A DNA stretch of 53,968 nt from Prorocentrum cordatum (Eukaryota): contig CAUYUJ010000277.1 in the NCBI GenBank assembly GCA_963575745.1, forward strand, positions 62,001 to 115,968, given 5' to 3'. A program made the translations under genes and the position numbers. The notes beneath the pieces were generated by a model that was not told the origin of the DNA, did no database searches, and saw only the letters and a program-made list of their open reading frames with translations. This document shows, piece after piece, positions 1,858 through 42,106 of the stretch. The first letter of the stretch is position 1. The number at the start of each line of letters is the position of its first letter.

Positions 1858-1912
<55 letters not shown>

Positions 1913-1922
1913 CTACAACATC

Positions 1923-1989
<67 letters not shown>

Positions 1990-2980: not shown

Positions 2981-3170
2981 GGGCCCGAACGACTCACACC
3001 AGGACGAGGGGCCCGAACAACTCACACCACGAGAAGCCCGAACGACTCACACCAGGACGAAGAGCCCGAACGACTCACACCACGAAGAGCCCGAACGACT
3101 CACACCAGGAAGAAGGGCCCGAACGACTCACACCAGGACGAGAAGCCCGAACGACTCAAATCACGAGGAG
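2981..3170. repeat. Minisatellite, 7 units of 25-28 bp, core GCCCGAACGACTCACACCA
   Basis: Constant 19-nt core separated by 6-9 nt purine-rich linkers. Confidence 0.9.
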
Positions 3171-4551: not shown

Positions 4552-5951
4552 TGGAATATTGGTCGGTTCTCACGCTGGAGAGATACTACATAGACCATCA
4601 ACCAAATCTGGGTGATCAATGCGTATGCCAGCGCACCTCTGAGGCTGACGAACATATCTGCCACCATCTCGGTCGCTTGGGCGTCAGCGTCCGCGCCAGT
4701 CAACTCATGATGTTGTATAGGGCGGAGCTGTTTAATGGATTCATATTGATCCAAAGTGACAGTGCCGTCCTCATCCTTGGTGCACCTCACAGCACAGTTC
4801 GTATATGTGTGCTTGTTGAGTTTACACTTACCAAAGGTATCCTCAACGCATTTGACATACTTGTCAATGGTGTCCTCAGTACCATCAATGTTAATGTCAT
4901 CCACATGTTTGGCCGTGAGCAAGTTAGTGCTCGTCTCGAACTCCTCGTCGTAAGAAGTAGGTCGGAGGCCTAATCCTCTGATGGTTCTCCTGAACTTAAC
5001 TGAGAAAGCCCGTGGGGCGTCCTTAGTGCCTGTGCCCGGTTTCAAGCACTGCAGGCAGTGCTTTGACTCGTCGTAGTTCTCAAACCCTGGAAGAGTACGG
5101 AGCACAGTTGCCGACCCAGGCGGCAAGGTAAAACACACCGCACTTTCCTTTTCACCAGTTGCCTCGGCGAGTTCTCGATAGGTCAATCCTTCTAGGAAGG
5201 CCATGTTGATGTCCAGGGAAGCAATGATCCACTGTTTCTTGCACGCTGCCGTGCTGGCAAGTAGCCTCTGGCTTGACCTTCTGACTGTTCCCCAAAATAT
5301 CTCTACATCGATAGCTTCCAGGCCCATGAGGCCTCGAAGTACCAGACGAAGTCGGATGGCGCGTTCCATCTCACCCTTGTCGTGTTTAACGACTTTCCGA
5401 TTGTATACATATCTCGAAGTCATGATGTCCGACGCTTTGGCGATCTCCTGTAATTTGAAGCATTTATTGTCGAACCATGCCTTGACTTCGGTGAACAGGG
5501 CCTTCAAATGTTTCTCGGGATTCGCCTGGATGTCAGCCGTAGTGAAGACGTCGTCTTCCTTGACGACCACAGCTCGCTTTGCAGCGGCAGCAACATATAC
5601 TCGCATGGTGGTCACCCGGTCTGCGTCTAACAGAATTTGTTGCTGCTCGAACAAGACGACCTTTGACATCTCCGTTGTGAGGCAGGGTTCAACGCATGGA
5701 CCGTTTTCGCCAGAGTCGAGTCCACAGCTGTCGTCTTCGACCAGGGCCCACAAGGGAGCGAAGTACGTTTCCTCAGTCTCAGGATCATGAGTGCGCCCCC
5801 ATTTCGGCGGGTGTCCCCGCTGTTCATCAGCCACAGTGGTCAACGCACTCTGGTCAGGATACATATGTGTGGGTACGGTAAAGAGTTCTTCTAGTGGAGC
5901 TGCCTCCAACAACTCCTTTTCCTCTCGCAACTCTGGGTACCATACCTCCAT
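4539..5951 (-). pseudogene. Copia reverse transcriptase (RVT_2-like)
   Basis: IMTSRYVY, RLRLVLRG, LDINMAFLEG, LKPGTGTKDAPRAF, and KHVDD catalytic motif. Confidence 0.9.
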
Positions 5952-8291
5952 AACATGTGACTCAAGATCAGCTTCTGATTCTTCGTGGATCGTAGACAGC
6001 CGTCCGTCATCATTTTCCGGCTTGGCTTCTGAAGCCTATCTAGCGGCCCCTCAGGTGGCGGCGCATCAGCCAAGTCCTCGAACTTTGACATATCCTGATC
6101 GAAGCCTGCCTGAGGCTTGATGGACGTCAGGCATTGGATGATTCGTGAGTGCTGATTGAGTTATACCATGTATGTTCAGAGCAGTACCTTCTGCTTCATA
6201 GTAATGGAATTCTGGATTCACGTCGTTATTGTAATGAACCAACGTGCAACTGTCAGCATAAGTAACCGGGGGTAGCTTATGAATACTCGTGGCTAATATG
6301 ACCGAAACAACGTTATCGATACGGAAGAAGTGTCTGATGAGATTTTGTAGGGCCAAGTGTACCTCTGGAGATAGTCGACTTGCCGTTGGCATATGAAGCG
6401 TACATTTCTTGGCCGGCACATAACCACATGTCAACGCAGGTCTCCCCGCTGAAAGGCTAGCTACGAATGTCAACATTGTGCGTAGTGCAGTGCTGTCGGA
6501 GCCAATCCCTCGGGCTATGAGTGCTTCAATGTAGAGCGAATGTCTTGCATCGCCGTATTGTACTTGAACATCTCGGTTGCCTACTCGGATGATGACCTGA
6601 CCCCTGCCTACTCGGATGATGACCTGACCCCTTTCAGGATCATTCTTCACAACTGGGAGCGGGCCATTCCAACCTCCCCAGTCATCTTTAGTAGTCGTAG
6701 GGCGATGGTAGTCAATCAAATCTCCTTCGTCATAATAATGCTGACCAGTAATGGTCGTCTTAGCGCGTAGTGCACGATTGGTCTTAGCTACTGCCGTGGC
6801 CTGTGTGATGGCCTCGAAGTACCAGACGAAGTCGGATGGCACGTTCCATATCACCCTTGTCGTGTTTAACGACTTTCCGTTTGTATACATATCTCGAAGT
6901 CATGATGTCCGACGCTCTGGCGATCTCCTGCAGTTTGAAGCATTTATCGTCGAACCCTGCCTTGACTTCGGTGAAAAGGGCCTTCGATATTTTCTCGGGA
7001 TTCGCCTGGATGTCAACCTTAGTGAAGACGTCGTCTTCCTTGACGACCACAGCTCGCTTTGCAGCGGCAGCAACATATACTCGCATGGTGGTCACCCGGT
7101 CGGCGTCCGACAGCATTTGTTGCTGCTCGGACAAGACGGCCTTTGACATCTCCGTTGCGAAGCAGAGTTCAACGTATGGACCGCTTTCGTCAGAGTCGAG
7201 TCAACAGCTGTCGTCTTCGACCAGGGTGCACAAGGGAGCGAAGTACGCTTCCCCAGTATCAGGATCATGAGTGCGCCCCCACTTCGGCAGGTGCCCCCGC
7301 TGCTCATCAGCCACAGTGACCAACACACTCTGGTCAGGAACCATATGTGTGGATACAGTAAAGAGTTCTTCTAGTGGGACTGCCTCCAGCAATTCCCTTT
7401 CCTCTCGCAACTCTGCGTACCATACCTCCATAACATGTGACTCAAGATCAGCTTCTGATTCTTCGTAAATCGTAGACAGCCGTACATCATCATCTTCTGG
7501 TTCGGCTTCTGAATCCTCTCTAGCAGCTCCCTCAGGTGGCGGCGCATCAGCCAAGTCCTCGAACTTTGACATGTCCTGATCGAAGCCTGCCTGAGGCTTG
7601 ATGGACGTCAGGCATTGGATGATTCGTGAGTGCTGGTTGAGTTATATCATGTATGTTCAGAGCAGTACCTTCTGCTTCATAGTAATGGAATTCTGGATTC
7701 ACGTCGTTATTGTAATGAACCAACGTGCAACTGTCAGCATAAGTAACCGGGGGTAGCTTATGAATACTCGTGGCTAATATGACCGAAACAACGTTCTCGA
7801 TACGGAAGAAGTTGCTGATGAGATGTTGCAGGGCCAAGTGTACATTTGGAGATAGGCGGCTTGCCGTTGTCATCTGAAGCGCACATTTCTTGGTCGCCAC
7901 ATAGCCAAATGTCAACGCAGGTCTCCCCGCTGAAAGGCTAGCTACGAACGCCAACATTGTGCGTAGTGCAGTGTTGTCGGAGCCAATCTCTCGAGCTATG
8001 AGTGCTTCAGTGTAGAGCGACTGTCTTGCATCGCCGTGTTGGACTTGAACATCTCGGTTGCCTACTCGGATGATGACCTGACCCCTGCCTACTCGGACGA
8101 TGACCTGACCCATTGCATGATCATTCTTCACAACTGGGAACGGGCCATTCCAACCTCCCCAGTCACCTTTAGTAGTCGTAGGGCGATGGTAGTCAACCAA
8201 ATCTCCTTCGTCATGATAATGCTGACCTGTAATGGTCGTCTTAGTGCGTAGTGCACGATTGTTCTTAGCTACTGCCGTGGCCTGTGTGATC
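5331..8291. repeat. 1.48-kb tandem duplication inside the Copia pol (units ~5331-6810 and ~6811-8291)
   Basis: gcctcgaagtaccagacgaagtcggatggc starts at both 5331 and 6811; ctgccgtggcctgtgtgat ends both units; duplicated peptides (QATAVAK, VYVAAAAKRAVVVKEDD). Confidence 0.95.
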
Positions 8292-17110: not shown

Positions 17111-18945
17111 GGGCTAATTCAGCCAGAATCTGAACTGGGTCCGGCGGTGAACCGTCAACCTAGTCACCGCCGCGAGCCTCGTAGAGCTCAGCTTGGTAAG
17201 AATGCAGAGAATCGGAGTAGAGTCATAAAATCTAGATTTTTTGAAAATCTGGATTTTCGATTTTTGCGATGTTCATATTCGCTCAATTCCCGGAAGTCAA
17301 CTCATAAGAAAATGCATCAGGAGAGCTGAGCTGCTGTCAGAAAGGAGTTTATATTCCAATGCCGCGCAAAAATCTGTTTTCTCAAAATAAATGGTTAAAT
17401 ATCTTTGAAATTCTCGCAAAACCGACCAAAAGTCACCAATTTGTCCGCCCCAGCCGGGTGGGCCAACTGGGCGCCGGCGGTAAACCGTTAACCTTCTTTA
17501 CCGCCGGGGGACTCGTAGAGCTTCCTGAGAACGAATTGTGTTTCAGCCCAGAGAACGCCCCCGATGCTTCTGAATTGTCTTCTGTTCGAGCTCTGTAGCT
17601 TTCCTGCAGCACGAGTTACGTGCGAAAATCGACAGCACCTCTAAAGATGACTCGAACAGTACGAATAGTTCGGCAAACCTAGCTCGAATATCAGACCGAG
17701 TTCAGAGCTCTGGAATCGACAGGCGGACGCACCTGATGTCTCCAAATCAATTCCTATGATTACCAGCCCTGCAGCCCCCCTGCAGCCCGAGTTAATTGCA
17801 GAAAACCGACAGCTCTCAGGATGACTCCAACAATACGAAAAGTTTCGCGGACCTAGTTCGGGCAGCAGACCGAGTTTCGAGCTCTGGATTCGACCAACGG
17901 ACGCAGCTGATGTCTCTAAATCGATTCCTGTGACTACCAGGTGGCCCCCCTGCAGTCCGAGTTAATTACAGAAAACCGGCAGCACCTCTCAATATGACTC
18001 GAAGAATACGAATAGTTTCGCGATTCTAGATCGGGCAGCAGACCGAGTTCAGAGCTCTGTATTCAACAAACGAACGCGACTGATGATTCCGAATCGGTTT
18101 CTGTGAGTATCAGCTCTGTATCTGTCGTACTCGAGTTAAGTACAGAAAACCGAGAGCGTCTGTCAAGATAACTCGAATAGGTTTGCGAATCTAGCTCGGC
18201 TAGCAGACCGAGTTCAGACCTCTCGATCCGACAGGCAAACGCACCTGAACATTCTGAATTGATAAGCTGTGCTTACCAGCTCTGTAGCTGTCCTGTATCT
18301 CGAGTTTAGTCCAATATACCGAGAGCGCGTATCAAGATGACTTGAAACGGTCGATCCCGCCTGCCTGCTTTTTGGCAGTAATACGTACCCGATCGAGCTG
18401 AGATCAAGATGGCGAGCAGAAATAATATCGAATATCATGGGAAAAAAACTAGAGCTCAAACGAATTCTTGAATTTCGAGAACAAAACTGGCGCCGGCGGC
18501 GAACCGTCAATCTGGTCACCGCCGGGAACGTCGCAGAGCTCTTTCCACGCGTGAGAGAGCTCAGAGTCGGACGAGAGAGCTTCTAGAGGCATCTCTCGAA
18601 AAATTGAACATTCATTTTTGTTCATGTCGACATAAAGTTGGTTCCCCCAAGTGTTTTGATAGTGAATGTGCGCCTAACGAGCTCATAATAAGACGCAGAG
18701 GCCCTCATAGTCGTTTACAAGTGCGAAGAATCTGGTTTCTCAAAATGAATTGTCGAATATTTTTGAAATCTTTGCAAAACCGACCCAAAGTCAGCACATT
18801 ATCTCTTTTCGTCGGGTCGGCCAACTAGCTCCACCCCGCGCCGGAATTCCTCTAGCTCATCGATGCCGAAGATCTTTAAAAGAATTCTTGAATTTCGAGA
18901 ACAAAATTTTCAACCGACCAAAAGTCACCAAAAGGTCCGTCGAGA

Positions 18946-20166
18946 CTGGGCGCCGGCGGTAAACCGTCAACCTTTCTTACCGCCGGGGGACTCGTAGAGC
19001 TTCCTGACAATATATAATACCGAAAAAACATGTAGAGACCGAACAGTTTTTCAGCCCAAGCGATTTCAGACCTTTCGATGCAACAGCCGAACGCCCCTGA
19101 TGATGGATTGTCTTCTACACGAGCTCTGTAGCTCTCCTACAGCCCGACTTACGTGCGTAAATCGACAGCGCCTTTCAAGATGACTCGAACAATACGAATA
19201 GTTCGGCAAACCTAGCTCGAGTATCAGACCGAGTTCAGACCTCTGAATGCAATAGTGGGGCGCGTCTGATGTCCCCGAATTGATTCCTGCGATTACCAGC
19301 CCTGCAGCCACCCTGCAGCCCGAGTTAAGTGCAGAAAACCGACAGCGACTCTCAAGATCACTCGAACAATACGAATAGTTTTGCGGACCTAGCTCGGGCA
19401 GCAGACCGAGTTCCAAGCTCTGGGTTCAACAGAAGAACGCGCCTGATGCCTCCGAATCGATCCATGAGATTACCAGCACGATAGTTTCCCTACAGCCTGA
19501 GTGAAGTACAGAAAACCGACAGCACCTCTCAAGATGACTCGAACAATACAAATAGTTTCGCAATTCTAGATCGGGCAGCAGACCGAGTTCAGAGCTCTGG
19601 ATTGAGCAAACACCGCGACTGATGATTATAAATCAGTTTCTGTAAGTATCAGCTCTGTAGCTGTCGTATAGCTCGAGTTAAGTACAAAAAACCGAGAGCG
19701 CCTGTCAAGATGACTCGAATAATACGAATAGGTTTGCGCACCTAGCTCGGCTAGCAGACCGAGTTCAGACCTCTGAATGGAACAGGCGAACGCGCCTGAT
19801 CATTCTGCATCGATGAGGTGTGCTTACCAGCTCTCTGGCTCTTCTATAGCTCGAGTTATGTTCAGAAAACCGCCACTGCGTGTCAACATAACCCGAAACA
19901 GCCGATCCCGCCGCAGTGCTTTTTGGCAGTAATATCTACCCGATCGATCTGAGATCAAGACGGCGAGCTGAAATAAGATCGAATATCACGGGAAAAAATA
20001 CTAGAGCTGAAACGAATTGAGGAATTTCGAGAACAAAATTTTCAACCGACCAAAAGTCACCAAAAGGTCCGTCGAGATGTTTCTTGCCAACTAGCTAGCT
20101 CTCCAGCGCCCCGGAATTACTCTTAAGCTTCCAGCGATCACTTGCTAGGGGAAGCTCTACGAGTTA
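18946..20166 (-). mobile_element. Full-length family B rolling-circle-like element (~1.2 kb, internal 177-bp repeats)
   Basis: Inverted pair ACTCGTAGAGCTTCC / GGAAGCTCTACGAGT; flanks cgaga | tatttcttgcc rejoin to the family B consensus. Confidence 0.75.
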
Positions 20167-21829
20167 TATTTCTTGCCAACTAGCTCTCCAGCGCCCCGGA
20201 ATTACTGGCGCCGACAGTGAACCGTCAACCTGGTCACCGCCGGGAACCTCGTAGAGCTCCTAACACGCGTAAGAGTGCTCAGCATCAAAAGAGGAGGCTT
20301 CTGGAAGCATTTCTCGAAAAAGAGAAAACATGATATTTTTCATGTCGACATAAAGTTGGTTTCGCCAAGTGTTTTGATAGTAAAAATGCATCTAGAGAGC
20401 TCATATTAAGAAGCAGAGGCCCTCATAGTCGTCTACAGGTGCGAAAAATCTGCTTTCTAAAAATAAAAGGACAAATATCTTTCAAAAAATCGCAAAACCA
20501 CCCAAAAGTTGTCACTTTGTCCGTCGGGGCCGGGTCGGCCAACTAGCTCGACCCCGCGCCGGAATTCCTCTAGCTCATCGACTGGGCGCCGGCGGTAAAC
20601 CGTCAACCTGGTCACCGCCGGGGACCTCGTAGAGCTCTTTTCTTGCCCAGCTCCTCGGAACACGTGAAGCAAGCGTAAGCGAGAGCCGAAAAACTCTAAA
20701 AAATCGATCGCATACAAATAGCTTTGCGGACTTAGCTCGAGAAGCAGACACTGTTCAGAGCTGTAGATGCTTCAGCCGAACGCCCTTGATGATTCTGTAT
20801 CGGTTTCTGCGCGTACCACCTCTGTAGCTGTGCTACAGCTAAAGTTAAGTGCAGAATACCGACAGCGCCTCTAAAGAGAACTTGAGAAATACGAATAGTG
20901 TTGTGGACCTAGCTCGACTAGCAGAACGATTTCAGGCCTCTCGATGCAACAGACGCAAGCGCCTGGTGATACTGAATCAGTTTCTGTGCGCATCAGCACT
21001 GTAGCTTCTCTGAATCTTGAGTTCAGTACAGAAAACCGGCATCACTGGTGAAGATGACTTTTACGGACCTAGCTCGAGTAGCAGACCGAGGTCAAACCTC
21101 TGGATGCAACAGGCGAACGCGCCTGATCATTCTGAATCGGTTTCTGTAAGCATCAGCTCTGTAGCTCTCGAAATCTCGAGTTAAATACAGAAAACACTGA
21201 ACGCGTGTCAAGATGACTCGGAACGCAGTTGGTTCCAGCAAGTCGTTTGATAGTAATATTGCAGCTACGGACCTGAGAATTTAACTGGCAGTCGCGGCAT
21301 AACCCACTACACGTGAGAAAAATACCGGTTCTCAAAATAAATTGTCAAATATATTCCAAATCAAAGCAAAACCGACCCAAGGTTATCACATTGTCTCTTT
21401 TGGTCAGGTCGGCCAACTAGCTCCACCCCGCGCCGGAATTCCTCTAGCTCATCGACGCCGAAGAGCTCTTCGAGGTATTTTTGGACTGCCAACGTGAAGT
21501 CGGCCCCTGGCTTTGCTCGGGAGAATTTCTCCACGGAATGAACTGAGAATGTGCGAGGTAACTTCTGTAATGCCAAGCTTCCCTCTCCGCAAATAGCAGC
21601 CCAAACGAATTATTAGAACTGCAAAATCGGCTGAGCCAGGCCGCGGAAGGTACGATCGCGTCCCTTTTCGACATTTCACCAACTAGCCCACCCTGTCGCC
21701 GAATTCCTCTAGCTCTTCTACCTTCAGAGCTCTACGAGGCATGACGAGGTACTCTTAAGCTTCCAGCAATCTTGGTTGGGTGTTGGGGTCGGCTACACAG
21801 GGCGCGCGCGCCCTAGCCGTGCAGAGCCC

Positions 21830-24800
21830 CTAGGGCCCCTCACGCCCTCTCAACCTCTTTGGGGTTGGAGGCCCGAGGACCTCAGAGATAATCTGCCGAA
21901 CACCTTGGAGCAGGCGCTCACAAGCTGTGAGCTCGCTATCTGTAACAGTGGCCCTCAGAGGGAGTAAAGAAGCCTCCTGGAAAACTCGTCGCCAGTGGTT
22001 GTCCCCAAATGAGACCTCCACATAGCAACCTAGAGCAGAGCCTTCAACACTCACGCCACCGTCCCATCCTCCACGGATACGTTTGATACAATGTCTCTGT
22101 TGTCGTAAATATCTGAAGTCAATCCATCTTCCCGTCCTTCCCCTCCTCGCCTCCCAAGTCAACTCATCCGCAACACAATTGAACTCTCTGTAGATATGCT
22201 TCCACGGATCCGTCCCTACAGTGGCACACCTGATGTCGTAATCCTCCGCCAGTTGATTCATATCGTTTTGTAGACCATGCACTCTCCTGCGGTACGAACG
22301 ATCACGGCATTCCCAGATCCCTCGGGCCCAGTTCACCACACACATACTATCACCTGTCATTTCAACCAACAATGAGCTCTCCGAGCCCTCCTGCCAGACA
22401 GCTTCGTTGTTATATCCGTGGGCAATCCTACGAGCGAGCCTGTCGGAGTCCTCAGGGGAGTCCCACGTATCCACAGGGCAAGGAGCACAGGGCGGTTTCC
22501 TGAAGATGGGCTCCCATCGAGGCTGTATTTTTGTCATGCACGCAACTACATTCCACCAGTCCGTCGCATTCCACTTGATGCTGAACCAGCGTAAATTACC
22601 ACTCGCCGCCAGCATAAGACAATGCCAGCTGTCAGTGCTTGCATGCGCTCTCCCTCCCACTCTCCTCGTACCTTCCCTCCTCCTGGCTCCCGTGAACATG
22701 GATACAAGTGTGCCCCTCCGTAGTGACCATTCCCCCGCACAGTGTAACATGGCCTGACGCGTCTGACGCCAGGCTCGTGCCCCACGCATGTCCGTGGAGG
22801 CGATGGCCCGATCATGAAACTGGGCCAGCTCCAACGCAAACTCGAAATTGGCCCGGACCACCTTCTCTAGGAGACTGCAGTGGCCAGCCTGCAAGAATAG
22901 CTCGTATGACTTCGGTGTGGTCCTGTCCCTGAACTCCTCCCACGTCTCCTCCTCCCTCTTGTGTAATCCTCGCATACCGTTGAGACACCTCCCCTCCCAG
23001 ACCTTAATCCTCTCCAGCAGTCGTAGATTGCACGGCCAGCCTATACATCCGTGGTACACCACAGACTGCACACGAGCGGCATACCTGCGAAACTTCTCTT
23101 TGAGTGAGACCGATCTGGAGCGATAAAACTGGATGTCAGCAAAATAGGCCTTCCTCCCTTTCTCCAGTCGATGATACAAGCCGTGATATCCCTTGATTTC
23201 CGAGCTGAGCTTCACTCCTAGTACCTCCACCTCCTCCTTCCTCGGCATTACGACAGTCGAGCGCAAGTGCTCTGGGAGATCCTCATCTCCAGAAATCGCA
23301 CAGATGGCTGGCGAGAGCGGGCAGAGCAGCGGCGGATCGCCACATGTGTACGTCTGGCCAAAAAGTACATACGCCAGAGAGTCCTCCTTCCAGTCCATCC
23401 CTGCCCGTCTGAGTGTTACCGTCATCATACCGATCATCTGTTGTAGCTGGAGCTGCGATGCAGCACAGAGCGTAACATTGTCCGCCCACAAGAAGTGGTG
23501 TACAAGAGCGCCGTCCGTCCCCTCCCCTTCCAGTCGGACACCGTATCCTAATGTATCCCAAGTCTGAATCACAGATCCCCAGATGGCCTCCAAGACAATA
23601 TTGAAAAGTATGGGTCCCTCCTTACCTCCCGTTCGGACCGATTTATTGTACCTCACCTCATCGCCGCACACGTTCTGAAACTCAAAGGTAGCAATGTTAT
23701 CCAGCATGGGCTCCACAATGGCTCTTATGAGGCACACAGGGTACTTAAGATACAGCATGGCCATGATGATAGTGTGCAGTGTGACATTATCGAAAGCTTT
23801 GTGTATGTCCAAGACTCCCACGTGCATAGACTCCGCCTTCCCCCACACATTTGCATGTCTAGTAAGATGTGATAGTGGTGCCGTGACGTTAGTAACCTTC
23901 TGATCCTTCTCAAATCCGTATGTGCACAACCGTCGGTTCACAGGAAATGCATCAATAAACTGCAACACACATGCCATGTACCATTTACTCATCACACTGA
24001 TCAGGCAAATCCCTCTGGTGTTGGAGAGTCGTGTAGCATCCCGCATCTTCGGCACAAGTTGGATACTGAGCTGCCTCCACGTCTCAGGGCTGGAGGCTCC
24101 CTGCTCGAAAATCCTCTGGAAAGCACGCCGCACAAACAAGAGGCTCCTCCACGGCAGCTCACGAATGACCTCAGCAACGACTCCATCGCTACCGGGTGCC
24201 GTGCCAGGCTTCAAAGACGCACGACCCTGCATGAGCATGCCCATCGCGATGACTCTTCCCTCCACCCCACGGTCGTTGTGTCTGAGTTCCTGAGAGGCCT
24301 CCAAAGTCCGTTTTTCCTCCTCCGAGTTCGTGTAAGACGCCGTCGCATACCTAGTGATCTCCGTACTCCACCTAGTCCTGTCCATTGTCAGCACACCCTC
24401 ACACTCCAGCTCCTTGAGGATACACCGTGAGGTCTTACTGGATCCCCTGTGGTCCTGCAGGAATTGGTTCCTCCTATGCTGTCTCCTAAGGGTCTTCCTC
24501 CTACGCAGCAGTTGTTTACGAGTATTCCCAAGGGCCCCACGCCTGATGGCAGACTCCACCTCTATGAGCTCCCTGGGCCTCTGAATGGGTTTGCAGTTGG
24601 GGCGCCCCTTAGTGTGGTCCACAAGCTCTGCCGTCTCCAAGAGTACCCGTCCGACCTGCTGCAGGTCCGCCCCTACCGTGTCCGATGCAAGCCCCTCAAT
24701 CGACACATCCGCAAGCACACGAAACATGTTCCTCGCCGTGTCATCCGTCGGCTGCCAGCCAACCATGGACACAGGGCGGGGTGGCAAAGCTGGGCGCCTG

Positions 24801-25612
24801 ATCTCCGTCGTCTTGAGATTTACCCAGACCAGGGCGTGATCACTATAGGCACTGGCTTTTGCACGTATACCTGGCGTAGCTTTGATGGGTTCCACAAACT
24901 GGACCTGGCATCTCATTTCCTGGTGAGCTCTTGCCTCATCCGCGCACCAACGTGTAGGGATGAGCATATAGTCAAGCACACGCTGCACATGTGTGGAACA
25001 GTACGGTATGTGTGTGATACGTCGGTCTCCATATGTGTTCGCCGCACAGATCCCCCAAGTACTCATGAACCTCATAAGCATGTCCCTCCTCTCTGCATGG
25101 TAGTTCGCCTCCTCCCTCCTCCCGTCCACCTGCATAAGACCTCCTCCCGTCATTCCCAGCATATCTGGTTCAAGTTCCGTCTGAGCATCCATCCCCACCC
25201 ATGGTATGACTCCAGCCTGTGTAGTTTGAAACATAGTAACACTGCACTTAGTAAGTACATCTAAGTATTCCCCCAAGTGGTCAACATCACGCATCACGCA
25301 TGGTAGATACACTGATGCAACTAGAGCACCCCTGAATTCGACACACGCAAATCGTACCCCACTCCGTCGAGCAATCACATGTGGTGCCCAATCCCTGCAC
25401 CATGCAACCGCCGCCTTGGAGCAGGAGCTATAGTGAATCTCCCATCCACATCTGTTAAAAGTATTTGCACTGGTATGCTCACACTCTTGCAGACACACCA
25501 TTTGAATTGACCTGGCTTCACATGCAGCGACCAGGTTGGGTACTTGACCGTCGGATATTTTCTGCACATTCCAGGTTGCGACCACGGTCTCTGTCGCAGC
25601 CCTACCGCCCCG
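21830..25612 (-). CDS. LINE ORF2: AP endonuclease + reverse transcriptase + permuted RNase H (no initiating ATG before the endonuclease)
   Basis: APE: ATWNV, CLQE, SVYLP, GMDAQ, LDY, SDH. RT: APGSDG, QLVPK, RGICL, LDIHKAFDNV, TGGKEGP, WADN, EVLG. RNase H: GDS, HIYREFN..AD, WDGG, TVTDSE. Confidence 0.93.
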   Translation of the reverse strand, partial: RGGRAATETVVATWNVQKISDGQVPNLVAACEARSIQMVCLQECEHTSANTFNRCGWEIHYSSCSKAAVAWCRDWAPHVIARRSGVRFACVEFRGALVASVYLPCVMRDVDHLGEYLDVLTKCSVTMFQTTQAGVIPWVGMDAQTELEPDMLGMTGGGLMQVDGRREEANYHAERRDMLMRFMSTWGICAANTYGDRRITHIPYCSTHVQRVLDYMLIPTRWCADEARAHQEMRCQVQFVEPIKATPGIRAKASAYSDHALVWVNLKTTEIRRPALPPRPVSMVGWQPTDDTARNMFRVLADVSIEGLASDTVGADLQQVGRVLLETAELVDHTKGRPNCKPIQRPRELIEVESAIRRGALGNTRKQLLRRRKTLRRQHRRNQFLQDHRGSSKTSRCILKELECEGVLTMDRTRWSTEITRYATASYTNSEEEKRTLEASQELRHNDRGVEGRVIAMGMLMQGRASLKPGTAPGSDGVVAEVIRELPWRSLLFVRRAFQRIFEQGASSPETWRQLSIQLVPKMRDATRLSNTRGICLISVMSKWYMACVLQFIDAFPVNRRLCTYGFEKDQKVTNVTAPLSHLTRHANVWGKAESMHVGVLDIHKAFDNVTLHTIIMAMLYLKYPVCLIRAIVEPMLDNIATFEFQNVCGDEVRYNKSVRTGGKEGPILFNIVLEAIWGSVIQTWDTLGYGVRLEGEGTDGALVHHFLWADNVTLCAASQLQLQQMIGMMTVTLRRAGMDWKEDSLAYVLFGQTYTCGDPPLLCPLSPAICAISGDEDLPEHLRSTVVMPRKEEVEVLGVKLSSEIKGYHGLYHRLEKGRKAYFADIQFYRSRSVSLKEKFRRYAARVQSVVYHGCIGWPCNLRLLERIKVWEGRCLNGMRGLHKREEETWEEFRDRTTPKSYELFLQAGHCSLLEKVVRANFEFALELAQFHDRAIASTDMRGARAWRQTRQAMLHCAGEWSLRRGTLVSMFTGARRREGTRRVGGRAHASTDSWHCLMLAASGNLRWFSIKWNATDWWNVVACMTKIQPRWEPIFRKPPCAPCPVDTWDSPEDSDRLARRIAHGYNNEAVWQEGSESSLLVEMTGDSMCVVNWARGIWECRDRSYRRRVHGLQNDMNQLAEDYDIRCATVGTDPWKHIYREFNCVADELTWEARRGRTGRWIDFRYLRQQRHCIKRIRGGWDGGVSVEGSALGCYVEVSFGDNHWRRVFQEASLLPLRATVTDSELTACERLLQGVRQIISEVLGPPTPKRLRGREGP

Positions 25613-26713
25613 TCAATGATTCGGGCACCGTAGTGTCTGAAGAAACTGCACCTGATTAATATCGGGCTCAACGTGTGTCAAATTATCACCATAGAGGTTC
25701 CATCCTTTTGTCGGTCCCCATTCTGCAATCAATGTCTTTTGTGTAGTATCATCAGCATTCGGCATATACCACATATATGTCATTGGCGGACCCGTCTCAC
25801 CTCGAAGAATACCCGTCGCATTTTTCTTGATATCAGAAAATAGTGCTTGAAACCGTCCTACCGCCCGAACATGTTCTATCTTCCATGGCTGGCATTCAAC
25901 TTGAAATCGCAAATTGGGAGGCAATGAAGTGAGTCCCCGCCTGTAGCCATTCTCCCACACACGTTTCGCTTCCCATAGGATCTCAGAGGATGTACCTGGC
26001 TTGAAATAGATCCTACCCCTCGTGTACGGCCAATATCTACCAGTATTCTCCTGAACCGTCCGATCCAAGTCCAGTGCCACCCTCTGTGTAGCATCAATTT
26101 GTTTAGAGTCAATGAGACCATTCATCGCCGTCGTCAGTGCCTCCTGTGAAAGAGCCTCCCGCTGACGTATCTCACGGTTCCTCCATCCCTCCCTTGAAAC
26201 CCACCCCTTGAACTCAACATAACGTGGATTCCAACCAGGGTCGTGCCTGTCCGTACCCGCCTTCGTGGATCCACTTGCTACCGACAGCCCGTCCCCCTGC
26301 TTGAGCTTCTGAACTTCATTGGTGAGGTCCTGGATCGCCGATTCTGTTTTTGATACCCTGGAGTCCAGAGATGTTTTCAGACCGTCCATTTCCGTGCGAC
26401 TAGAGTTCCTGAACGATTGCATGTCTGCCGTCATAGTCTGTTGTCCCGTCATGATGGATCGAAACATCTGTTCAATGTCAAGGCCAGCTTCCTGGGCAAC
26501 CTCATTCGCACCCAACGTTTGTCCCGCACCTCCTCCTTCTCCTTTCCCTCCTCCTTTGACATTACGAGCACGGACAGCTCTAGCAAACGCCCCACCCCCA
26601 TCATCAATTGTCATGTCCTGGCCCACCGCATGCAAGCCTGGAGCACCTGAAACTGAAGAACCTGCTGGCATCGCTGGTGCAGCACCTGAAACTGAAGAAC
26701 CTGCTGCAGCCAT
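25613..26713 (-). CDS. LINE ORF1 (predicted coiled coil followed by RRM-like region), ~366 aa from the first ATG
   Basis: First in-frame ATG at 26713 (AAG ATG GCT); heptad-like stretch MDGLKTSLDSRVSKTESAIQDLTNEVQKLK then RYVEFKGW; lies directly upstream of ORF2. The frame stays open to ~27349 without ATG. Confidence 0.75.
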   Translation of the reverse strand: MAAAGSSVSGAAPAMPAGSSVSGAPGLHAVGQDMTIDDGGGAFARAVRARNVKGGGKGEGGGAGQTLGANEVAQEAGLDIEQMFRSIMTGQQTMTADMQSFRNSSRTEMDGLKTSLDSRVSKTESAIQDLTNEVQKLKQGDGLSVASGSTKAGTDRHDPGWNPRYVEFKGWVSREGWRNREIRQREALSQEALTTAMNGLIDSKQIDATQRVALDLDRTVQENTGRYWPYTRGRIYFKPGTSSEILWEAKRVWENGYRRGLTSLPPNLRFQVECQPWKIEHVRAVGRFQALFSDIKKNATGILRGETGPPMTYMWYMPNADDTTQKTLIAEWGPTKGWNLYGDNLTHVEPDINQVQFLQTLRCPNH

Positions 26714-29700
26714 CTTCCCTTTGTGGCTGCGTAAGATATTGAAATCGTAACCTTCACCCTGCACGAAGTGGTTACGCAGGATATTGAAATCGTAACCTTC
26801 ACCCTGCACAAACGGTACTGTTGGTGTGAGCGATGGCACACAAATAACAGCTCTCCTGTCACCTCGAGGTGTCCCGACCTGTCTAGCAAGATAGTCCCAG
26901 TCCGCGTGACTGAAGTCGGATCCCCAGCACTCCGTCGTTCCAAGAGAGAGGAAAAGAGACAATTGCAGCAGTAGCAATAACAATAACAAGTGCAGGCGGC
27001 CTAGCACACACAATAACAATAACAAGTGCAGCGGCCTAGCTGACCTCGATCTCGCTGAACCCGAAGAAGACGAAGAAGGCAGCGATGGCTGCCGCGCCGC
27101 CCGCGGCGACGCACCCCCCTCCCACACGCTAGACGCCTGTGGGATCCAGACGCCTTGATCCAGACGCCTTGAGCCTTGGACGCCTTGGACGCCAGACGTG
27201 TGATCGAGGTACAGTGGTAGCGTCCAAAACCCGGAGAGCGAAGAGGCAACTCTGCAGAGCTTTCGCGCCGCGCTCTGGGGGGCTCTCCTGAAGCGCTTCT
27301 CAAGCGCTGCCTGGCACGCTTCCACGCGTGCCTGCACGCGTGCAGGCACGCGTGGACGCGTGCCGGAACCGCTCCCGGACGGGCTGCGACCTCCGGCGAG
27401 TCGCTGCGGGGATTCTGGAGCGGCGAAGATGGGCTGCTGGGAGGCACCACCACCGTCCGGCTTCTAATCTAAAACCCTATAGCTCTCAGAGAGCTCTCCG
27501 GGAACATTGTCTCTTTAGGTCGGGTCTGCCAACTGGGAGCCGGCGGTAAACCGTCAACCAGGTTAGCGCCGGGAGCCTCGTAGAGCTCTTCTTCTGGCGT
27601 GGAGTGCTCAGAACACACGGAGGTAGCTTTCTCAACCGTAAGCTGAAAAACTCTGAAAAAAAAACACGTTTTTCGGTTTTCATCCAAAGTCGGTCCCTTC
27701 AAATGTTTTGATAGTGATACTGGGCGCTGGCGGTAAACCGTCAACCTTTCTTACAGATGGGAAACTCGTAGAGCTTCCTTCCCATATATCTATATATATA
27801 TATGTGTCCAAATAATTACCAGAGAACGAATAGTTTTCAGCCCGAGCGCTGATAGCAGACTGATCTCAGGCGTCTAGTACCATTTCCAAGAAAGCGGTTC
27901 AGCCCAAGCGCTAACAGCAGACTCAGCGCGGGTGTCTAGATACATTTAAATAGCGCGCATGATGATTCTCTTTTCATTGCAATGCCTATGAGCTCTCAAG
28001 CTCATCTGCACCTCGAGCTCAGTCCAGAAAACGAATTCCATCACCAGAACAATAGCAGAGTATTTGTTTGGCGTCTGCGCTCATAACAGACCCAAGCCAA
28101 GCGTCCAGATACTTGAGACTGGCGCGCTTCATGACTTCCTTTTGATTTCTGTGCGGAAGAGCTCTGAAGCTCATCTGCCGATCGAGTTCAGTGAAGAATT
28201 GTACCAACATGTCGAAAAAATCGGTCGAATACGAATAGTTTTGCGGACCTAGCTCGAGTAGCAGACTGGGTTCAGAGCTCTAGATACTCCAGCCGAACGC
28301 GCCTGATTATTCTGAATTGATTACGTGCGCCTAAAAGCTCTGTAGCTATGCTACAGCTCGAGTTAAGTACAGAACACCGACAGTGCCTGTTAAGAGAACT
28401 CGAAGAATACGGATAGCGTCGCGGACCTAGCTCGAATAACAAACCGAGTTCAGACCTCTCGATGCAACAGACGAACGCGCCTGATGATTCTGAATCGATT
28501 CGTGCGCGCACCAGCTCTGTAGCTCTGCTACAGCCGAGTTAAGTACAGAAAACCGACAGCACCTGACAAGATGACTCGAAGAATACGACTAGTTTCGCGG
28601 ACCTAGCTCGAGTAGCAGACCGAGTTCAGACCTCTGGATGCAATAGACAAACGCGCCAAGTGTTTTGATAGTAATACTGGAGCTACGGACCTGAGAATTT
28701 CACTGGCGGGCGCGGCATAACCTACTACAGGTGCGAAAAAATACCCGTTCTCAAAACGAATGTTCAAATCTCTCACAATCTTCGTCCAACCGACCCAAAG
28801 TTCCCACTGGGTGCCGGCGGTAAACCGTCAACCTTGGTTACCGCCGGGGGACTCGTAGAGCTTCCTTACCATATACCATCTCTAAAGAATAAGCAGAGTA
28901 CGAATAGTTGTTCAGCCCGAGCGCTAATAGCAGACTGATTGCAGCCGTCTAGATACATTCAGTCAACCAGCACCTCTGACAATTTCCTTCCGATTGCTGT
29001 GCAGAACAGCCCTGTAGCTCATCTGCAGCGCGAGTTAGACCAAGAAAACCAATACCGTCTGCAAGAAATTAGCAGAGTACGAATAGGTGTTGTTCAGCCA
29101 GGGCGCTCATAGAAGTCTGACTTCAGGGGTCTAGGCACTATCAAATAGCGCGCCTCATGATTGTCTTCCGATTGCTCTGCCTCAGAGCTCGGGATCTCAT
29201 CTGCAACTCGAGCTTAGTCAGAAAAACCATTCCATCACCAGGATAAAAAAAAAATCTGAATAGTTGTTCGGCTTCTGTGCTGAGAACAGACCGAATCCAA
29301 GCGTCTGGACACTTCAGACTAGCGCGTCTGACAATTCCCTCCCGACTTCTGTGCGAAAGAGCAATGACGCTTGGATGCAGCTCGACTTCAGTCAAGCAAC
29401 TCACCATCATCTTGAAAAAAGTCGGTAGACTACGAATAGCTTCGCGAACCCAGCTCGAGTAGCAGACCGAGTTCAGACCTCTAGATGCTTCAGACAAACG
29501 CGCCTGATGATTCTGAATCGAGTGCGTGTGCGCGTCAGCTCTGTGGCCCTCCTACAGCTCGAGGTAAGTACAGAAAACCAACAGCAGCTGTCAAGAAAAT
29601 TCGTGCAATACGAATAGTTGTGCGGACCTAGCTCGAGTAGTGGACCGAGTTCAGACTTCTAGATGCTTCAGACGAATGCGCATGATGATTCTAAATCGAT

Positions 29701-32070: not shown

Positions 32071-33233
32071 TGGTGTTTGGTCAGGCTACACCAGGGCGCG
32101 CGCGCCCAAGCCTAAGGGCAAGAGCCAGTTAAATCCGTTTCCTCCGCTTTGCAAAGGAAATTTCTTTAACAATGTGCTCCACACCTGTGCACAGGCGCTC
32201 GGCAGCAGACAATTCTGCCTCCGTCACGGTGGAGCCGACATCAAACATGTAGGCTTCAGAGCACACGAGCGTCCACGGGCCATTCTCTGGAGCAACTTCA
32301 ATCCAGTGACCTCCTGCGGCACCCTCACTACTCACACCACCATCCCAACATCCTCTGATGTATTTGATGTTTGTCTTGTTCTGTTTGATGTAGTCGTGCT
32401 TGTATACTATGTAACAATTTCCTTCTCTCGCATGGTGTGTGTAAGCTCATCAGCATAGGCATTGGCTTCTCTATAGATGTGTTTTCAGCAATCCTTTCCG
32501 TGGGTCGGGCATCGTGTGTTGTATTGTTCACACATGTCGTACATGATATTTTGTATCCTGGCAATCCGTTTGGCATATCCACTGTTGTCACAAGCCCAGA
32601 CTCCCCTCAACCATTGTACCACCGTCCTACTGTCACCACACATTTCAATAGCAATCCCCTCCATTCCACGGTCCCATATTGTCGTTTGTTCGTGTATGAT
32701 TGCAAGCCGTCGGGCCAGCTCATCATTTGTCGGTACCTTCGCAAAGCCTCCGACCCTCACCTCCTCCTTCCTCCTCACAAACATGTCCTGCACTTTGGGT
32801 ATCTGTGATAGATGTTCCACAAACTCCTCCCAATCCGTCGGGACCACACACGTATCGCACCACAAGAGGGACCTCCATTTTTCAAAAAGGTGCATGCCAG
32901 CTTCCTGTCACGATCCTTGGTATGCCCCTGAGCCGTCTCGTTCCCTCCCTCGCTTTCGTCTGACTCACGGACGCCAGCATTGCATCCCTCTGCACCGTCC
33001 ATTCTCCCGATACATGCAGCATCGAGCGCAGCGTCTGCTGCCATGATTTGCTATACACCGTGGACGGCATGTGGCATTCATATTGGGATACTTCAACCGC
33101 AAATTCGAAGTTGTATCTCACGACTTTTTCCACCAACGTTTTGGATCCCCCTTCTTTGAACATCTCCCTGGACCTGTTGGTACTACGATCCCTGAACTCC
33201 GCCCACGTTTCCGTCTCTCTTCTGTGTAATCCT
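32071..33233 (-). mobile_element. 5'-truncated, decayed LINE of a related family (post-RT region + permuted RNase H)
   Basis: GLHRRETETWAEFRDR, IEMCGDSRTVVQW, KHIYREANAYADEL, YIRGCWDGG, STVTEAEL align to ORF2; two frameshifts and a TGA at the conserved W; same 3' hairpin. Confidence 0.9.
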
Positions 33234-34304
33234 GTCAAGATGACTCGAAACAGCACCTGTCAAGATGACTCGAAACAGCCGGTCCCGCCTGGATGCTTTT
33301 TGGCAGTAAAAGCTACCCGATCGAGCTCAGATTGAGACGGCGAGCGGGAATAAGATCGAATATCACGGGAAAAAATACTAGAGCTCAAACGAATGGTTGA
33401 ATTTCGAGAACATAACTGGGATCCGGCGGTAAACCGTCAACCAGGTAACCGCCGGGAGCCTCGTAGAGCTCTTTCTTGCGCGGCGGTGCTCGAAACAAAC
33501 GGAAAAAGCTTTCTCAAGCGCGAAGAAAAGAGCTCGAAAAATACGTTTTCCAACGTCGGTTCCCTCAAGTTTTTTGATAGTAAGATTGCATCTACGGACC
33601 TGAGAATTGGACTGGCAGACGTGGCGTAACCCACTACACGTGAGAAAAAAAATGATTTCTCAAAATGAATTGTCAAATATCTTTCAAATCTCAGCAGAAC
33701 CGACCCCAAGTCACCACATTGTCTCTCAAGGTCTGATCTGCCAACTAGCTCCACCCTGCGTCCGAATTCCTCTTATTCTATCCAAAAAATTAGCAGAGGA
33801 CAAATAGTTGTTTCAGCCCGAGCGCTGATAGCAGATGATCTCAGGCGTCTAGATACATTTCACTATTGCCCCTGATGCTCTGTCGCTCATCTGCAGCGCG
33901 AGTGAAACCAAGAAGAACAATACAATTTCCAAGAAAGTAGCACAGTACGAATCAGTGTTCGGCCCTAGCGCTAATAGTAGACTCAGCGTGGGTGTCTAGA
34001 TACTTTCAAATAGCGCGCATCTTCATCATTTCCCCATTGCAATGCCTAAGAGCTCTCAAGCTCATCTGCACCTCGAATTCACACCAGGAACGAATTCCAT
34101 CACCAGAAAAAAAAAAAGAGAACATGACTAGTTGTGCGGCGTCTGCGCTCATAAAAGACTTAAGCCGAGCGTCTAGATACTTCAGACTAGCGCACCGCAG
34201 AATGTTCTTCGGATTTCTGTGCGGAAGAGCTCTGAAGCCCATATGCAGATCGAGTTAAGCGAAGAAATTCATCGCTATTTCGAGAGGGAGAGAGAGAGAG
34301 GGGG

Positions 34305-38559: not shown

Positions 38560-40677
38560 TTTTTTGTTGCGTCTTTGCTGGGACCGTCCTGGCCACTGAG
38601 GCCAGGTCCAACGAAGTCTCAGGCGAATCAGAGCCTCTTATTCGTCACGCAAGCAGTCAACTCTTATTTCACATCAGCGAAGCTGTTAGAATAAAGAGAA
38701 TAAAAACCAGCAATGACACAATCAATCGCAAAACACACAAATGATAAACGAAGAGCAAATAAACAGCGAAGCTGTTAGAATAAACAAGAAGACAACATAT
38801 GATATGAAACAATGTGCGACTTATCACTGCGAATGATCAAAGAAGGTCTGTACAACCTGTGGGGGCACATCACATATGCGCTCCGCCACTGATAACTCCG
38901 CATCTGCGACCGTGGCACTTGGTGGCAGACACCAAGCCGCAAGATACACATCCTTGAAAGTGATGTCGGTCCGCGAGAAGATATACTTGTTACGCAGACC
39001 TATCTGTATCCACACGCCACAGGCCCTTCCGCGGCTACAAACACCCCCATCAAAGCCAGCTCTGATAAGGCAAGGAGTAAAACACTGAGATTCGAAATCA
39101 CTGAGGTAAAAGAAATCGGCTTACATATGGCCCTGACGGGCCTGATGGGTCAGTAAGTCAGCCCTCTGGTTCCATTCCCGAAAAGACTGAGAGAAGAAGT
39201 CACGGCCAGCCTCTGGAGGCCTCACCGAGTCAGCATCCTGCATCTCGTCCAACTTATTTTTCAGAGTGTCCACCCTTTTCTGATATACCTGAGCTGATAC
39301 TTTCCATTTCCCACAGAGCCAGTTAATCACTAGCAACGAGTCCCCCTGGATGTCCAGTGCTATCCCATCCGTTTCGAGGTCCCACTGTGTGCAAAGCATG
39401 CTATGCAGCGCGATACGTTTGCTAAGTCGATCCCTATATGCTGGTGTATCCTCCCGATCTTGACCAATATGAACCCCTCCATCCTCATCCATATTCAAGA
39501 ACACAGGAACCCCTGAGGACGCCAAGCCTTTGCATTTCTTCTGGAAATACTTCAACATACTACTAGAACAAACGCGCGCAGCGAAATCCATGAAATGTTC
39601 AAAGCTTCCAACAAAGAACTCCCACCAGGATAAACCATAAAACGATTCCAAAGAATAATACCAAGAACGAAGCCCTACACTCTCCTGTCCCCCACGATGT
39701 CGTTTCAGTGACCTAGCCCCCTTGGATTTCCCCCAACATCTGAGAGCCTCGCTCGAATCTGTCCTCGTTCTATCCCACAGCCGGCCAAACGCCAGGCATG
39801 AGAAACGAGACTCTCTCCAAGCTCTTGTCGAGTTCGCCTCCAGCGCCTCCTGATCTGCGATCAACCTCTGGGCAAAATCGCGGACGTCGATTGCCCACAT
39901 CCAGTGCACTCTGAGAAACTTCTGTACAATACCCACATAATGTGCATCATGGAACTTCTGTCTCGCACGTTCATACCTCCTCGTATTCCACTCCTGATAA
40001 CTTTCCTCCTCCCTCCGTACACAACGAAACATGACAGCCAGGCACTTACCCTCAAAGATATGAAGGGCACTCAATGAACTAGAGTCGACGGTGCATCCTT
40101 CCGCCGCGCGGAGAACAATACTCTGAACCCTCTGCGCATACCTCTCATACTTATCTTTCAGCGGAATGGCCGTGGAGCGGAAAAAGGACGCCTGGCCCCA
40201 GAACGCCCTACGAGCAGAGTCAACACTAGCATCCAGATCTGGATGCTCATTTACATGTAGTTCAGAACAAATATGAGCCCCAAGCACCTCCATCTCCGTC
40301 ACTCTTCTGAATCGATACATTCCCGAATCCTCCGACCCAATCGAGAGAACAAGATCAGCAGTTCGGAATATTTCCCCTTCCGCATCACGCGGAGGCGCAG
40401 CACCGAACACCATGTACAATAGACTGGACTCCTTCCATCTCATACCATAGTCATGTAAGTGTGTAGTCAGACCGTGTAACATGCGCGTGAGTTCCTCCCG
40501 ACTCCGAGCCAGAACATGACAGTTGTCCGCCCAGAGGAAGTGATTAATAACCGAAATACAGCTAGTCGAGCCTGTAGCAAACTCAATACGATAACCTAGC
40601 CCTAGCACGTCCCATTCTCGAACCGTGGAACTCCACATAGCGGCAACAATAAGATTGAAAGCCAATGGTCCCTCATA
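38560..40677 (-). mobile_element. 5'-truncated LINE of a third, more divergent family (RT C-half + permuted RNase H)
   Basis: EGPLAFN, HFLWADN, MEVLG, IQGDSLLVINW, FREWNQRADLL; after one in-frame TAA (39121-39123) IRAGFDGG and ATVADAEL; A-rich tail at 38560-38570. Confidence 0.9.
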
Positions 40678-42106
40678 CCGCCGGGAGCCTCATAGAGCTC
40701 TTTCCTCGCACGGCACTGCTGGGCACACATCGGTGCAGCTTTCTTACGCGAGGGCTACTTCAATTTTTTTCAGTTTTCACCGAAAGTCGGTTGCTTCAAG
40801 TGTTTGGATAATAACTTTGCAGCTACGGACCTGAGAATTTCACTGGCAGACGCGGCATAACACACTACAGGTGCGAAAAATACCGGTTCTCGAAACGACT
40901 GATCAAATCTCTCACAATGTTCGCCTAACCGACCCAAAATTCCCACATTGTCCGCCCGGGCCGGGTGGGTCAACTAGCTGCACCCCGCGCCAGAATTCCT
41001 CTAGCTCATCGATGCCGGAAAGCTCTACGAGGTATGTTCAAAACTTCCAGAATGTTCGCCGAATCCACCCAAAGTTCACACATTGTCCGCCCGGGCCGGA
41101 TGGGTCAACTGGGCGCCGGCGGTAAACCGTCATCCTTTCTTACCGCCGGGAGACTCGTAGAGCTTCCTTGACACATATATTATGTCCAAAGAATTTGCAG
41201 AGAACGAATAGTTTATCAGCCCTACCGCTGATAGCAAACTGATCTCGGGCGTCTAGATACATTTGACTATTGACCCTTCCCATTGCTGTGCTGAACAGGT
41301 AGCTCATCTGCAGCACGAGTAGAACCAAGAAAAAAAAAACATTTCCAAGAAAGTAGCAGAGTACGAATCGCTGTTCAGCCCTAGCGCAAAAAGCAAACTG
41401 AGTGTGGGTGTCTAGATACTTTCAAATAGCGCGCATAATGATTATCTCCCCATTGCAAGCTCATCGGCAGCTCGAGTTCAGCCCAGGAAACGAACCCCGT
41501 CACAAGAATAATAGCAGAGTATGACTAGTTGTTCGGCGTCTGCGCTCACAACAGACCCAAGCCAAGCGTCTAGATACTTTACACTAGCGCGCCTCAAGAT
41601 TTCCTTCTGAATTCTGTGCGGAAGAGCTCTCAAGCTCATCTGCAGCTCGAGTTCAGTGAAGAAATTCACCATCATTTCGAAAAAAAACGGTCGAATACAA
41701 TAGTTTTGCGGACCTAGCTCGAGTAGCAGACTGAGTTCAGAGCTCTGGATGCATCAGCCGAACGCGCCTGATATCGATTATATGTGCGTTCCAGCTCTGT
41801 AGCTATGCTACAGCTCGAGATTAATAAAGAACACCGACAGCACCTGTCAAGATGACTCGAAGAATACAAATAGTTTCGCGGACCTAGCTCGAGTAGCAGA
41901 CCGCGTTCAGACCTCTGGATGCAACAAACAAACACGCCTGATAATTTGGAATCCGTTTCTGGAAGCATCAGCTCTGTAGCTCTCTAAATCTCAAGTTAAG
42001 CACAGAGAAACGTCAACGCGTGTCAAGATGACTCGAAACGGCCGATCCCGCCAGGACGCTTTTTGGGAGTAATATGTACCCGATATGTATCGAATATGGT
42101 CAAAAA

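Follow-up and report, generated by a model that had tools for sequence, protein, structure and literature searches.

A candidate UGA-CGG readthrough junction between ORF1 and ORF2 of an L1-like LINE in a Prorocentrum cordatum contig

How does a long interspersed nuclear element (LINE) obtain its enzyme when the second open reading frame (ORF2) follows the first (ORF1) directly, in the same frame, behind a single stop codon and with no AUG ahead of its first catalytic motif? The question is raised by a LINE on the minus strand of a 53,968-nucleotide stretch of the Prorocentrum cordatum assembly GCA_963575745.1 (contig CAUYUJ010000277.1, positions 62,001 to 115,968 of the forward strand). This whole stretch is called the window here, and positions are given in its numbering. 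ORF2 translation from the bicistronic RNA of LINEs is only partly understood, human L1 included. An earlier reading of the letters made without database searches (the sequence-only reading) had proposed that ORF2 is made here as an ORF1-ORF2 fusion by programmed readthrough of the ORF1 stop. After the computational follow-up reported below, we consider it probable that the junction is a programmed type II (UGA-CGG) readthrough site giving rise to a rare ORF1-ORF2 fusion protein. The focal element is an intact member of a multi-copy, L1-like family of non-long terminal repeat (non-LTR) retrotransposons.

The minus strand at the junction reads ...CCG AAT CAT TGA CGG GGC GGT AGG GCT GCG ACA GAG ACC GTG GTC GCA ACC TGG AAT, exactly as it had been reported. 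The ORF1 stop codon TGA (25613..25615) is in frame with ORF2, and the adjoining CGG (25610..25612) completes the hexamer UGACGG. On the ORF1 side the frame is open from stop to stop for 616 codons (27463 to 25616); the first ATG, at 26713 in the context GGGAAGATGG, gives an ORF1 of 366 codons. After the TGA the same frame runs on for 1260 codons (25612-21833) and ends at a TAG (21832-21830). The 1878 codons contain a single TGA and no TAA, and their sole TAG is the terminal one. A frame of 1877 codons with its single stop at the very place where ORF1 homologues end is far beyond chance. In ORF2 an in-frame ATG first occurs at codon 38 (25501-25499), downstream of the TWN motif of the endonuclease (TGG at 25573-25571), and the statement that no ATG precedes this motif was therefore accurate.

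A stop in the middle of such a frame could be a private nonsense mutation in a dead copy of a family whose ORF1-ORF2 frame is normally continuous. Single-ORF LINEs do exist (ingi and L1Tc; PMC5972666), and only one full copy is present in the window. Contigs of four runs from four studies were aligned to positions 24400-26800 (2.4 kb). Between 12 and 899 contigs per run matched, with identity from >99% down to <90%; these numbers and the spread of identity point to a multi-copy family. Of the 119 differences among the copies, none of the best-supported 40 falls at 25613-25615, and the TGA is retained in the dominant, high-depth contigs from other copies. One contig from run X3 (record 20, 25455-25652, depth 342) departs from the window sequence at 25493 alone; one from run X1 (record 4, 25299-26092) carries 11 differences, of which the 10 listed are all elsewhere. 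The coding variants also bear the mark of a functional frame: 24 of the 39 well-supported ones are synonymous in the shared frame (16/26 on the ORF1 side, 8/13 on the ORF2 side), where a share of 0.23-0.28 is expected (P <= 1.1e-5). This excess points to purifying selection on both ORFs in one frame, right up to the stop. Parts of the element are present in marine and freshwater plankton runs. Among the 24 runs listed as matching none was an RNA run, which says nothing on expression.

The homologous proteins place the stop in the same way. A query of 1200 residues reading through the TGA was searched against 1.84 billion representatives and gave 2662 matches at an expectation value (E) <= 0.001, of which 150 were listed. 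Among the matches listed, ORF1 and ORF2 homologues are separate proteins, and in none of the 150 does the best stretch cross from ORF1 into ORF2; P0007 comes closest, beginning at query residue 364. ORF1 homologues among the matches include P0004 (51% identical) and P0005 (46%). In an alignment with eleven ORF1 homologues (21-81% identical), ten end within three alignment columns of the window ORF1, and the ending ...LRCPNH is shared by P0028 (81-83% identical). The eleventh homologue, P0031, is an ORF1-ORF2 chimera in which an in-frame internal deletion has joined mid-ORF1 to the interior of the endonuclease. From this common end we conclude that the stop is the natural end of ORF1, in agreement with the earlier remark that it falls at a domain boundary. 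The closest relatives with a name come from a Pyramimonas strain in EukProt, as short peptides (P0028, 83%), and the short high-identity matches among those listed are 84-96% identical. In word-index protein searches, ORF2 found only three weak matches; a 200-residue junction query found no match among proteins of 110-350 residues and one, P0028, under 110 residues. With the TGA kept in other copies, the shared end of the ORF1 homologues and the same stop in a second family (below), a private nonsense mutation is largely refuted, and we consider it very improbable.

Alternatively, the organism might read UGA as an amino acid, or insert selenocysteine. Variant nuclear codes do occur in some protists. 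The codon counts speak against this: in 1877 codons there is a single TGA, at the end of ORF1, as against 53 TGG, 48 Cys and 157 Arg codons. The ORF1 homologues, called under the standard code, end at the same point. A search of 21300-27700 against Rfam gave no family at E <= 1, the selenocysteine insertion sequence (SECIS) element included. UGA as a sense codon is in our view scarcely credible.

The junction recurs in a second family. A search of metagenome contigs returned a single locus, L001 (1984 nt); no relatives were found when the ORF1 alignment was searched in genome contigs and viral contigs, or the ORF2 alignment in viral contigs. L001 ORF1 is identical to the window ORF1 at 149 of 316 residues (47%). 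Where a residue with a four-fold site is identical in the two, they have the same third base in 11 of 49 cases, and in 3 of 11 at the ORF2 start, so that synonymous sites are saturated and the split between the two families is old. Despite this saturation, the L001 junction reads ...CCG AAT TGA CGG TGC CAA AAT GCT GCC GAG CTC GCG GTG GCA ACT TGG AAC, with the same stop (TGA at 1498-1500), the same next codon CGG and the same ORF2 frame as in the window. L001 ORF1 is one codon shorter before the stop, and the linker from the stop to the TGG has 12 codons in L001 versus 13 in the window; in both places the length changes by whole codons. Both elements use CGG as a minor Arg codon (19/157 in the focal element, 2/20 in L001 ORF1), and its retention after the stop is therefore informative and not a matter of codon usage. 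A conserved in-frame TGA-CGG in related families had been named beforehand as the sign to be expected of readthrough, and it is present in L001 with no ATG upstream. L001 has in addition a frame break within the endonuclease, near 1740-1800, and an upstream ORF (134-520) in another frame.

Type II readthrough is used by several groups of viruses, tobraviruses among them. The type II hexamers in the classes of Beier and Grimm are UGACGG and UGACUA, and UGACGG is the one carried by Venezuelan equine encephalitis virus (VEEV) and Colorado tick fever virus (CTFV) (PMC13517186). At the VEEV nsP3/nsP4 junction and in CTFV segment 9 the frame downstream of this shared hexamer encodes a polymerase, and a structure lies near +12, counted as below from the U of UGA. 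Both are viruses with extended stem-loops of 78-177 nt, whereas the present case is a cellular retrotransposon with a predicted hairpin of about 33 nt. The general premises of the sequence-only reading, that UGA-CGG is a leaky context and that reinitiation operates in the LINEs investigated so far, agree with PMC13517186 and PMC5972666, respectively.

Readthrough itself, how often it happens, what the hairpin contributes and the existence of a fusion protein are inferred from these features, and the sequence of events would be as follows. The full-length RNA would be translated from the ORF1 AUG. Most ribosomes would halt at the UGA and release the ORF1 protein (ORF1p), a predicted coiled-coil RNA-binding protein. 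A small fraction would decode the leaky UGA-CGG by a near-cognate tRNA and continue in frame, possibly assisted in decoding the UGA by a small hairpin that starts 9-12 nt downstream. The product would be an ORF1-ORF2 fusion carrying endonuclease, reverse transcriptase (RT) and RNase H-like domain. Readthrough would then set a low ORF2:ORF1 ratio and would keep the enzyme attached to the ORF1p that coats its own RNA.

The candidate stimulator is a small hairpin (25572..25604, minus strand) at +12 to +44, with 4 bp, an internal loop and 6 bp. Known stimulators start at +12 to +16, the extended stem-loops of VEEV and CTFV at +12 (PMC13517186). The window hairpin has a predicted energy of -12.2 kcal/mol, and L001 can form one of the same build at +9 to +42 (-16.2 kcal/mol). 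RNAalifold on the two sequences gave seven pairs, of which one is changed on both sides (G-C to U-G), two are changed on one side and none is broken. We regard the apparent conservation of the hairpin between two sequences as a lead, not a finding.

Several observations weigh against readthrough and are collected here. The conservation of TGA-CGG rests on two families with a common ancestry. Among the copies, the junction was covered in three of the four runs (X10 had no cover there), and beyond the 40 best-supported of 119 differences rare copies with a sense codon are possible. In three more distant ORF2 homologues of about 30% identity (P0007, P0015 and P0010), an in-frame Met precedes the corresponding motif by 17-55 residues, so the arrangement without AUG is a trait of a sub-group and not of the whole clade. 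The ranks of the hairpin are modest: 158 of 1584 in-frame positions in the window fold as well or better (top 10%), and 20 of 618 in L001 (top 3%), at the shortest of three lengths tried, a fold window that was chosen after the folds were known. The longer fold windows gave ordinary ranks (459 and 530 of 1584; 66 and 113 of 618). The sequence-only reading had named the downstream 150 nt as the place to look for a stimulatory stem-loop; the fold there is no better than shuffles in the window (z -0.43) or in L001 (z -1.06), and the search there found only the small hairpin of 10-12 bp, with no extended stem-loop of the VEEV/CTFV kind. At the VEEV and CTFV UGACGG sites, readthrough without the extended stem-loop is <1% (PMC13517186). 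The hairpin also does not discriminate between mechanisms, since termination-reinitiation in Bombyx SART1 requires a downstream structure as well (PMC5972666). Finally, both families carry a GTG at +31 in a good context.

This GTG belongs to the rival that we take most seriously, reinitiation. Here ribosomes would terminate at the UGA and 40S subunits would restart at a non-AUG codon, for example the GUG 27 nt downstream, to give free ORF2 protein (ORF2p); the shared frame would be an inherited accident. Where LINEs have been investigated, reinitiation is the mechanism on record: it is proposed for human L1 and demonstrated for SART1 (PMC5972666), and the small conserved hairpin could serve as the structure that SART1 needs. 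The in-frame GTG (25583..25585) has an A at -3 and a G at +4; its counterpart in L001, also at +31, has a purine at -3 and a G at +4. A start there would leave the endonuclease whole, and over a stop-to-GUG spacer of only 27 nt the frame could be kept by mere inheritance. The GUG itself carries little weight, however: Val is expected in that strand of the endonuclease and GTG is the commonest Val codon (47/114 in the focal element, 6/13 in L001), so its presence at +31 says little. An in-frame AUG is absent until +115 in the window and until +79 in L001, where it again follows the TWN motif; nearer AUGs are out of frame, and no stop-start overlap of the UAAUG type was found at either junction. 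Reinitiation also requires neither a shared frame nor a TGA nor a CGG, yet all three, including the rare Arg codon, are kept while synonymous sites are saturated. We consider reinitiation unlikely, though a reasonable contender. The case for readthrough keeps the TGA of the sibling copies, the natural ORF1 end and the TGA-CGG of L001, and is weakened by the missing extended stem-loop and by the GUG at +31 in both families.

ORF2 could also come from another RNA, whether made at an internal promoter, by processing or as a subgenomic transcript, or internal ribosome entry could supply it; in either case the junction would be irrelevant to translation. Nothing in the analysis speaks for this directly, and neither family has an AUG ahead of the catalytic Asn. 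It leaves the conservation of TGA-CGG and of the frame unexplained, and the coding constraint reaches the stop from both sides. We judge such a source of ORF2 improbable.

Readthrough of an ORF1 stop is not a wholly new idea for LINEs. In group 3 LINEs of Paramecium, ORF1 and ORF2 lie in one frame and it was suggested that ORF2 needs readthrough of the ORF1 stop (PMC5405496), which is a precedent. Those elements belong to a ciliate clade with an ORF1 ending in a zinc finger, whereas the element studied here combines an L1-ORF1p-like ORF1 with an RNase H-like end. In the available part of that report, readthrough is proposed without a motif, a structure or a cross-family test; relative to it, the present case adds a recognised leaky hexamer, two old families, a candidate hairpin and a different lineage. 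Our full-text literature searches found no demonstrated readthrough in a LINE, only the Paramecium suggestion.

The studied LINEs differ from the focal element at the junction. Human L1 resembles it in having a bicistronic RNA, an ORF1p with coiled coil, RNA recognition motif (RRM) and C-terminal domain, as predicted for the focal ORF1, and an ORF2 with an RT and an apurinic/apyrimidinic (AP) endonuclease, the latter recognised by its motifs in the focal ORF2; it has a 63-nt spacer and an ORF2 AUG (PMC5972666), whereas the focal element lacks both and keeps a single frame across a leaky stop context. Bombyx SART1 uses an overlapping stop and start (UAAUG; PMC5972666), an overlap that is absent here. 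In ingi and L1Tc, which carry 2A peptides, a single frame holds the parts of ORF1 type and ORF2 type and one ribosome run makes both (PMC5972666), as would be the case here; these elements have no stop, and ribosome skipping gives equal amounts, while the stop in the focal element would skew the ratio.

The reading we favour applies to a LINE the logic of murine leukaemia virus Gag/Gag-Pol and of alphavirus nsP3/nsP4. The Arabidopsis LINE Ta11 may have in-frame ORFs, and the plant LTR element SIRE1 reportedly uses stop suppression. In gammaretroviruses such as Moloney murine leukaemia virus (MoMLV), RT is likewise a rare C-terminal extension of an RNA-binding structural protein, reached through one in-frame stop (PMC13517186). 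MoMLV is an LTR element, however, with a type III context (UAG-GGA) and a pseudoknot, and its protease frees Pol. With no protease in the focal LINE, the two parts of the fusion would remain joined.

A wider proposal is tentative, and we hold it with a little less than even confidence. It states that a clade of algal L1-like LINEs makes its enzyme solely as an ORF1p-ORF2p fusion through a virus-like UGA-CGG and a minimal hairpin, a Gag-Pol strategy without a protease. Endonuclease and RT would be tethered to the ORF1p trimer, a physical basis for cis-preference, and the same clade would carry a circularly permuted RNase H. If the junction is confirmed as a readthrough site, ORF2 of the focal LINE would hinge on a defined leaky stop of six bases that is conserved across families, and the element would offer a simple, mutable system for the minimum need of a LINE for ORF2p as well as a test of whether a covalent ORF1p-ORF2p link can replace cis-preference. 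The type II context of RNA viruses would then serve cellular retroelements too, in a host of green-algal type, and together with the Paramecium proposal readthrough would have arisen more than once in non-LTR elements.

The whole insertion is 6051 bp long (21481..27531, minus strand) and lies within an array of ~177-bp repeats. Its limits were set by comparison with uninterrupted repeat units used as empty sites (38265/38266; 20581/20582), the flanks matching repeat units up to 21479-21481 and from 27531-27532. Against these empty sites no poly(A) tail, simple-repeat tail or clear target-site duplication was seen at the ends of the LINE; the 3' end reads ...GTTGGCAGTCCAAAA. Such tails and duplications are not universal across LINE clades. 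The 3' untranslated region covers 21481..21829 and the 5' untranslated region, as read here, 26714..27531 (both minus strand). The latter contains a 45-bp tandem duplication (26765-26809, minus strand; VQGEGYDFNILR... twice) a short way ahead of the ORF1 ATG. It is absent from other copies represented by contigs in runs X1 and X3, which have loose ends at 26764; the duplication is private to the focal copy because these loose ends continue with the sequence preceding the first unit. Differing 5' ends among the copies, which the loose ends might have indicated, were rejected on the same grounds. Positions 26714-27463 (minus strand) hold 250 open codons in the ORF1 frame without an ATG, of low complexity with Leu, Ser and Gly runs, and other frames of this region are fairly open too. 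A longer ORF1 was considered and rejected: neither the N-terminal extensions of P0154 nor the L001 upstream ORF is significantly similar to the 250 upstream codons.

ORF1 (25616..26713, minus strand; 366 codons) is predicted to consist of a disordered N-terminus, a long coiled-coil helix, an RRM-like domain and a C-terminal domain. Its structure model (predicted local distance difference test score, pLDDT, 73) shows a 60-residue helix at 80-140 and two alpha/beta domains. Foldseek gave human L1 ORF1p as the top seven matches, weakly (E 0.014-0.05), and as nine of the top ten (E 0.014-0.07). Residues 160-280 match RRM folds with Z 5.3-5.8, and a VIA-align comparison of the model gave Z 5.3 with a poor root-mean-square deviation. 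No Pfam family matched in ORF1. Judged by the model, ORF1 is L1-ORF1p-like in build; membership is not claimed. In the Gly-rich part of ORF1, at 26506-26586, the summed depth of run X7 rises to 3740, as compared with about 100-400 in the adjoining bins, probably through a short high-copy or low-complexity match.

ORF2 (21833..25612, minus strand; 1260 codons) encodes a putative AP-type endonuclease, an RT and an RNase H-like end. The endonuclease (24818..25585, minus strand; ORF2 residues about 10-265) was recognised by motifs in the translation, TWN, LQE, Y102, D142, D214 and D258-H259 (SDH), which we take to be catalytic. All but TWN are invariant in five of five aligned ORF2s. The Pfam family Exo_endo_phos stayed below threshold, with no match in the window and a weak one (E 0.05) in the relative P0007. 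In all four runs a contig matches only a 46-nt piece of the endonuclease, 25077-25122, with unlike sequence on either side, which indicates a short stretch shared with some other sequence in these organisms. The RT domain (23210..24028, minus strand; residues 529-801) matches Pfam RVT_1 with E 1.1e-12 (48.5 bits, cut-off 29.6). The best PDB sequence matches of ORF2 (E 5.7e-9 to 6.5e-7) include Bombyx R2 (5.7e-9) and human L1 ORF2p (1.6e-7).

The last ~180 residues of ORF2 form an RNase H-like domain (21863..22402, minus strand) that resembles RNase H but has its catalytic motifs in permuted order. GDS...H..RE.N..AD stands ahead of DGG...SEL, and these residues are invariant in six of six sequences of the clade. 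Along the chain the residues run D (GDS), H, D (AD), D (DGG), E (SEL), where a canonical RNase H has D, E, D, (H), D. In the domain model, which is confident (pLDDT 85), each half matches RNase H chains weakly (Z 3.8 and 3.5), and the order of the halves is swapped. Pfam RVT_3 matches the first half at E 0.016, over profile positions 63-119 only, and Foldseek on the model returned nothing at E <= 0.001. A circularly permuted RNase H may be a marker of this LINE clade.

The repeat array that holds the LINE is long, from 17600 to 47450, and has higher-order structure. The repeat unit has one position, ...GGCNCCCAGT / ATACCTCG..., that is continuous in some units (38265/38266) and occupied in others by unrelated inserts of 60-75 bp (41005-41135, 18845-18975), which hints at a preferred point of insertion or breakage. 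The same array contains two 5'-truncated copies of other families of the LINE clade (38836-40674 and 32159-33238, both minus strand). They span RT through the RNase H-like end and do not include the junction; they are 28-44% identical to the focal ORF2, with P0006 as the best match. Outside the array, 4542-6035 (minus strand) encodes a Ty1/copia-type RT (Pfam RVT_2, E 4.2e-10). Around it are long minus-strand ORFs up to ~13800 without a Pfam match, and the region from 4542 to ~13800 is probably a second, degraded retroelement. The first 4000 positions (1-4000) are GC-rich and skewed, and towards the other end of the window, at 49965-50869 and 51893-53968, there are long arrays of (CA)n and (CACAGACA)n with a strong strand skew.

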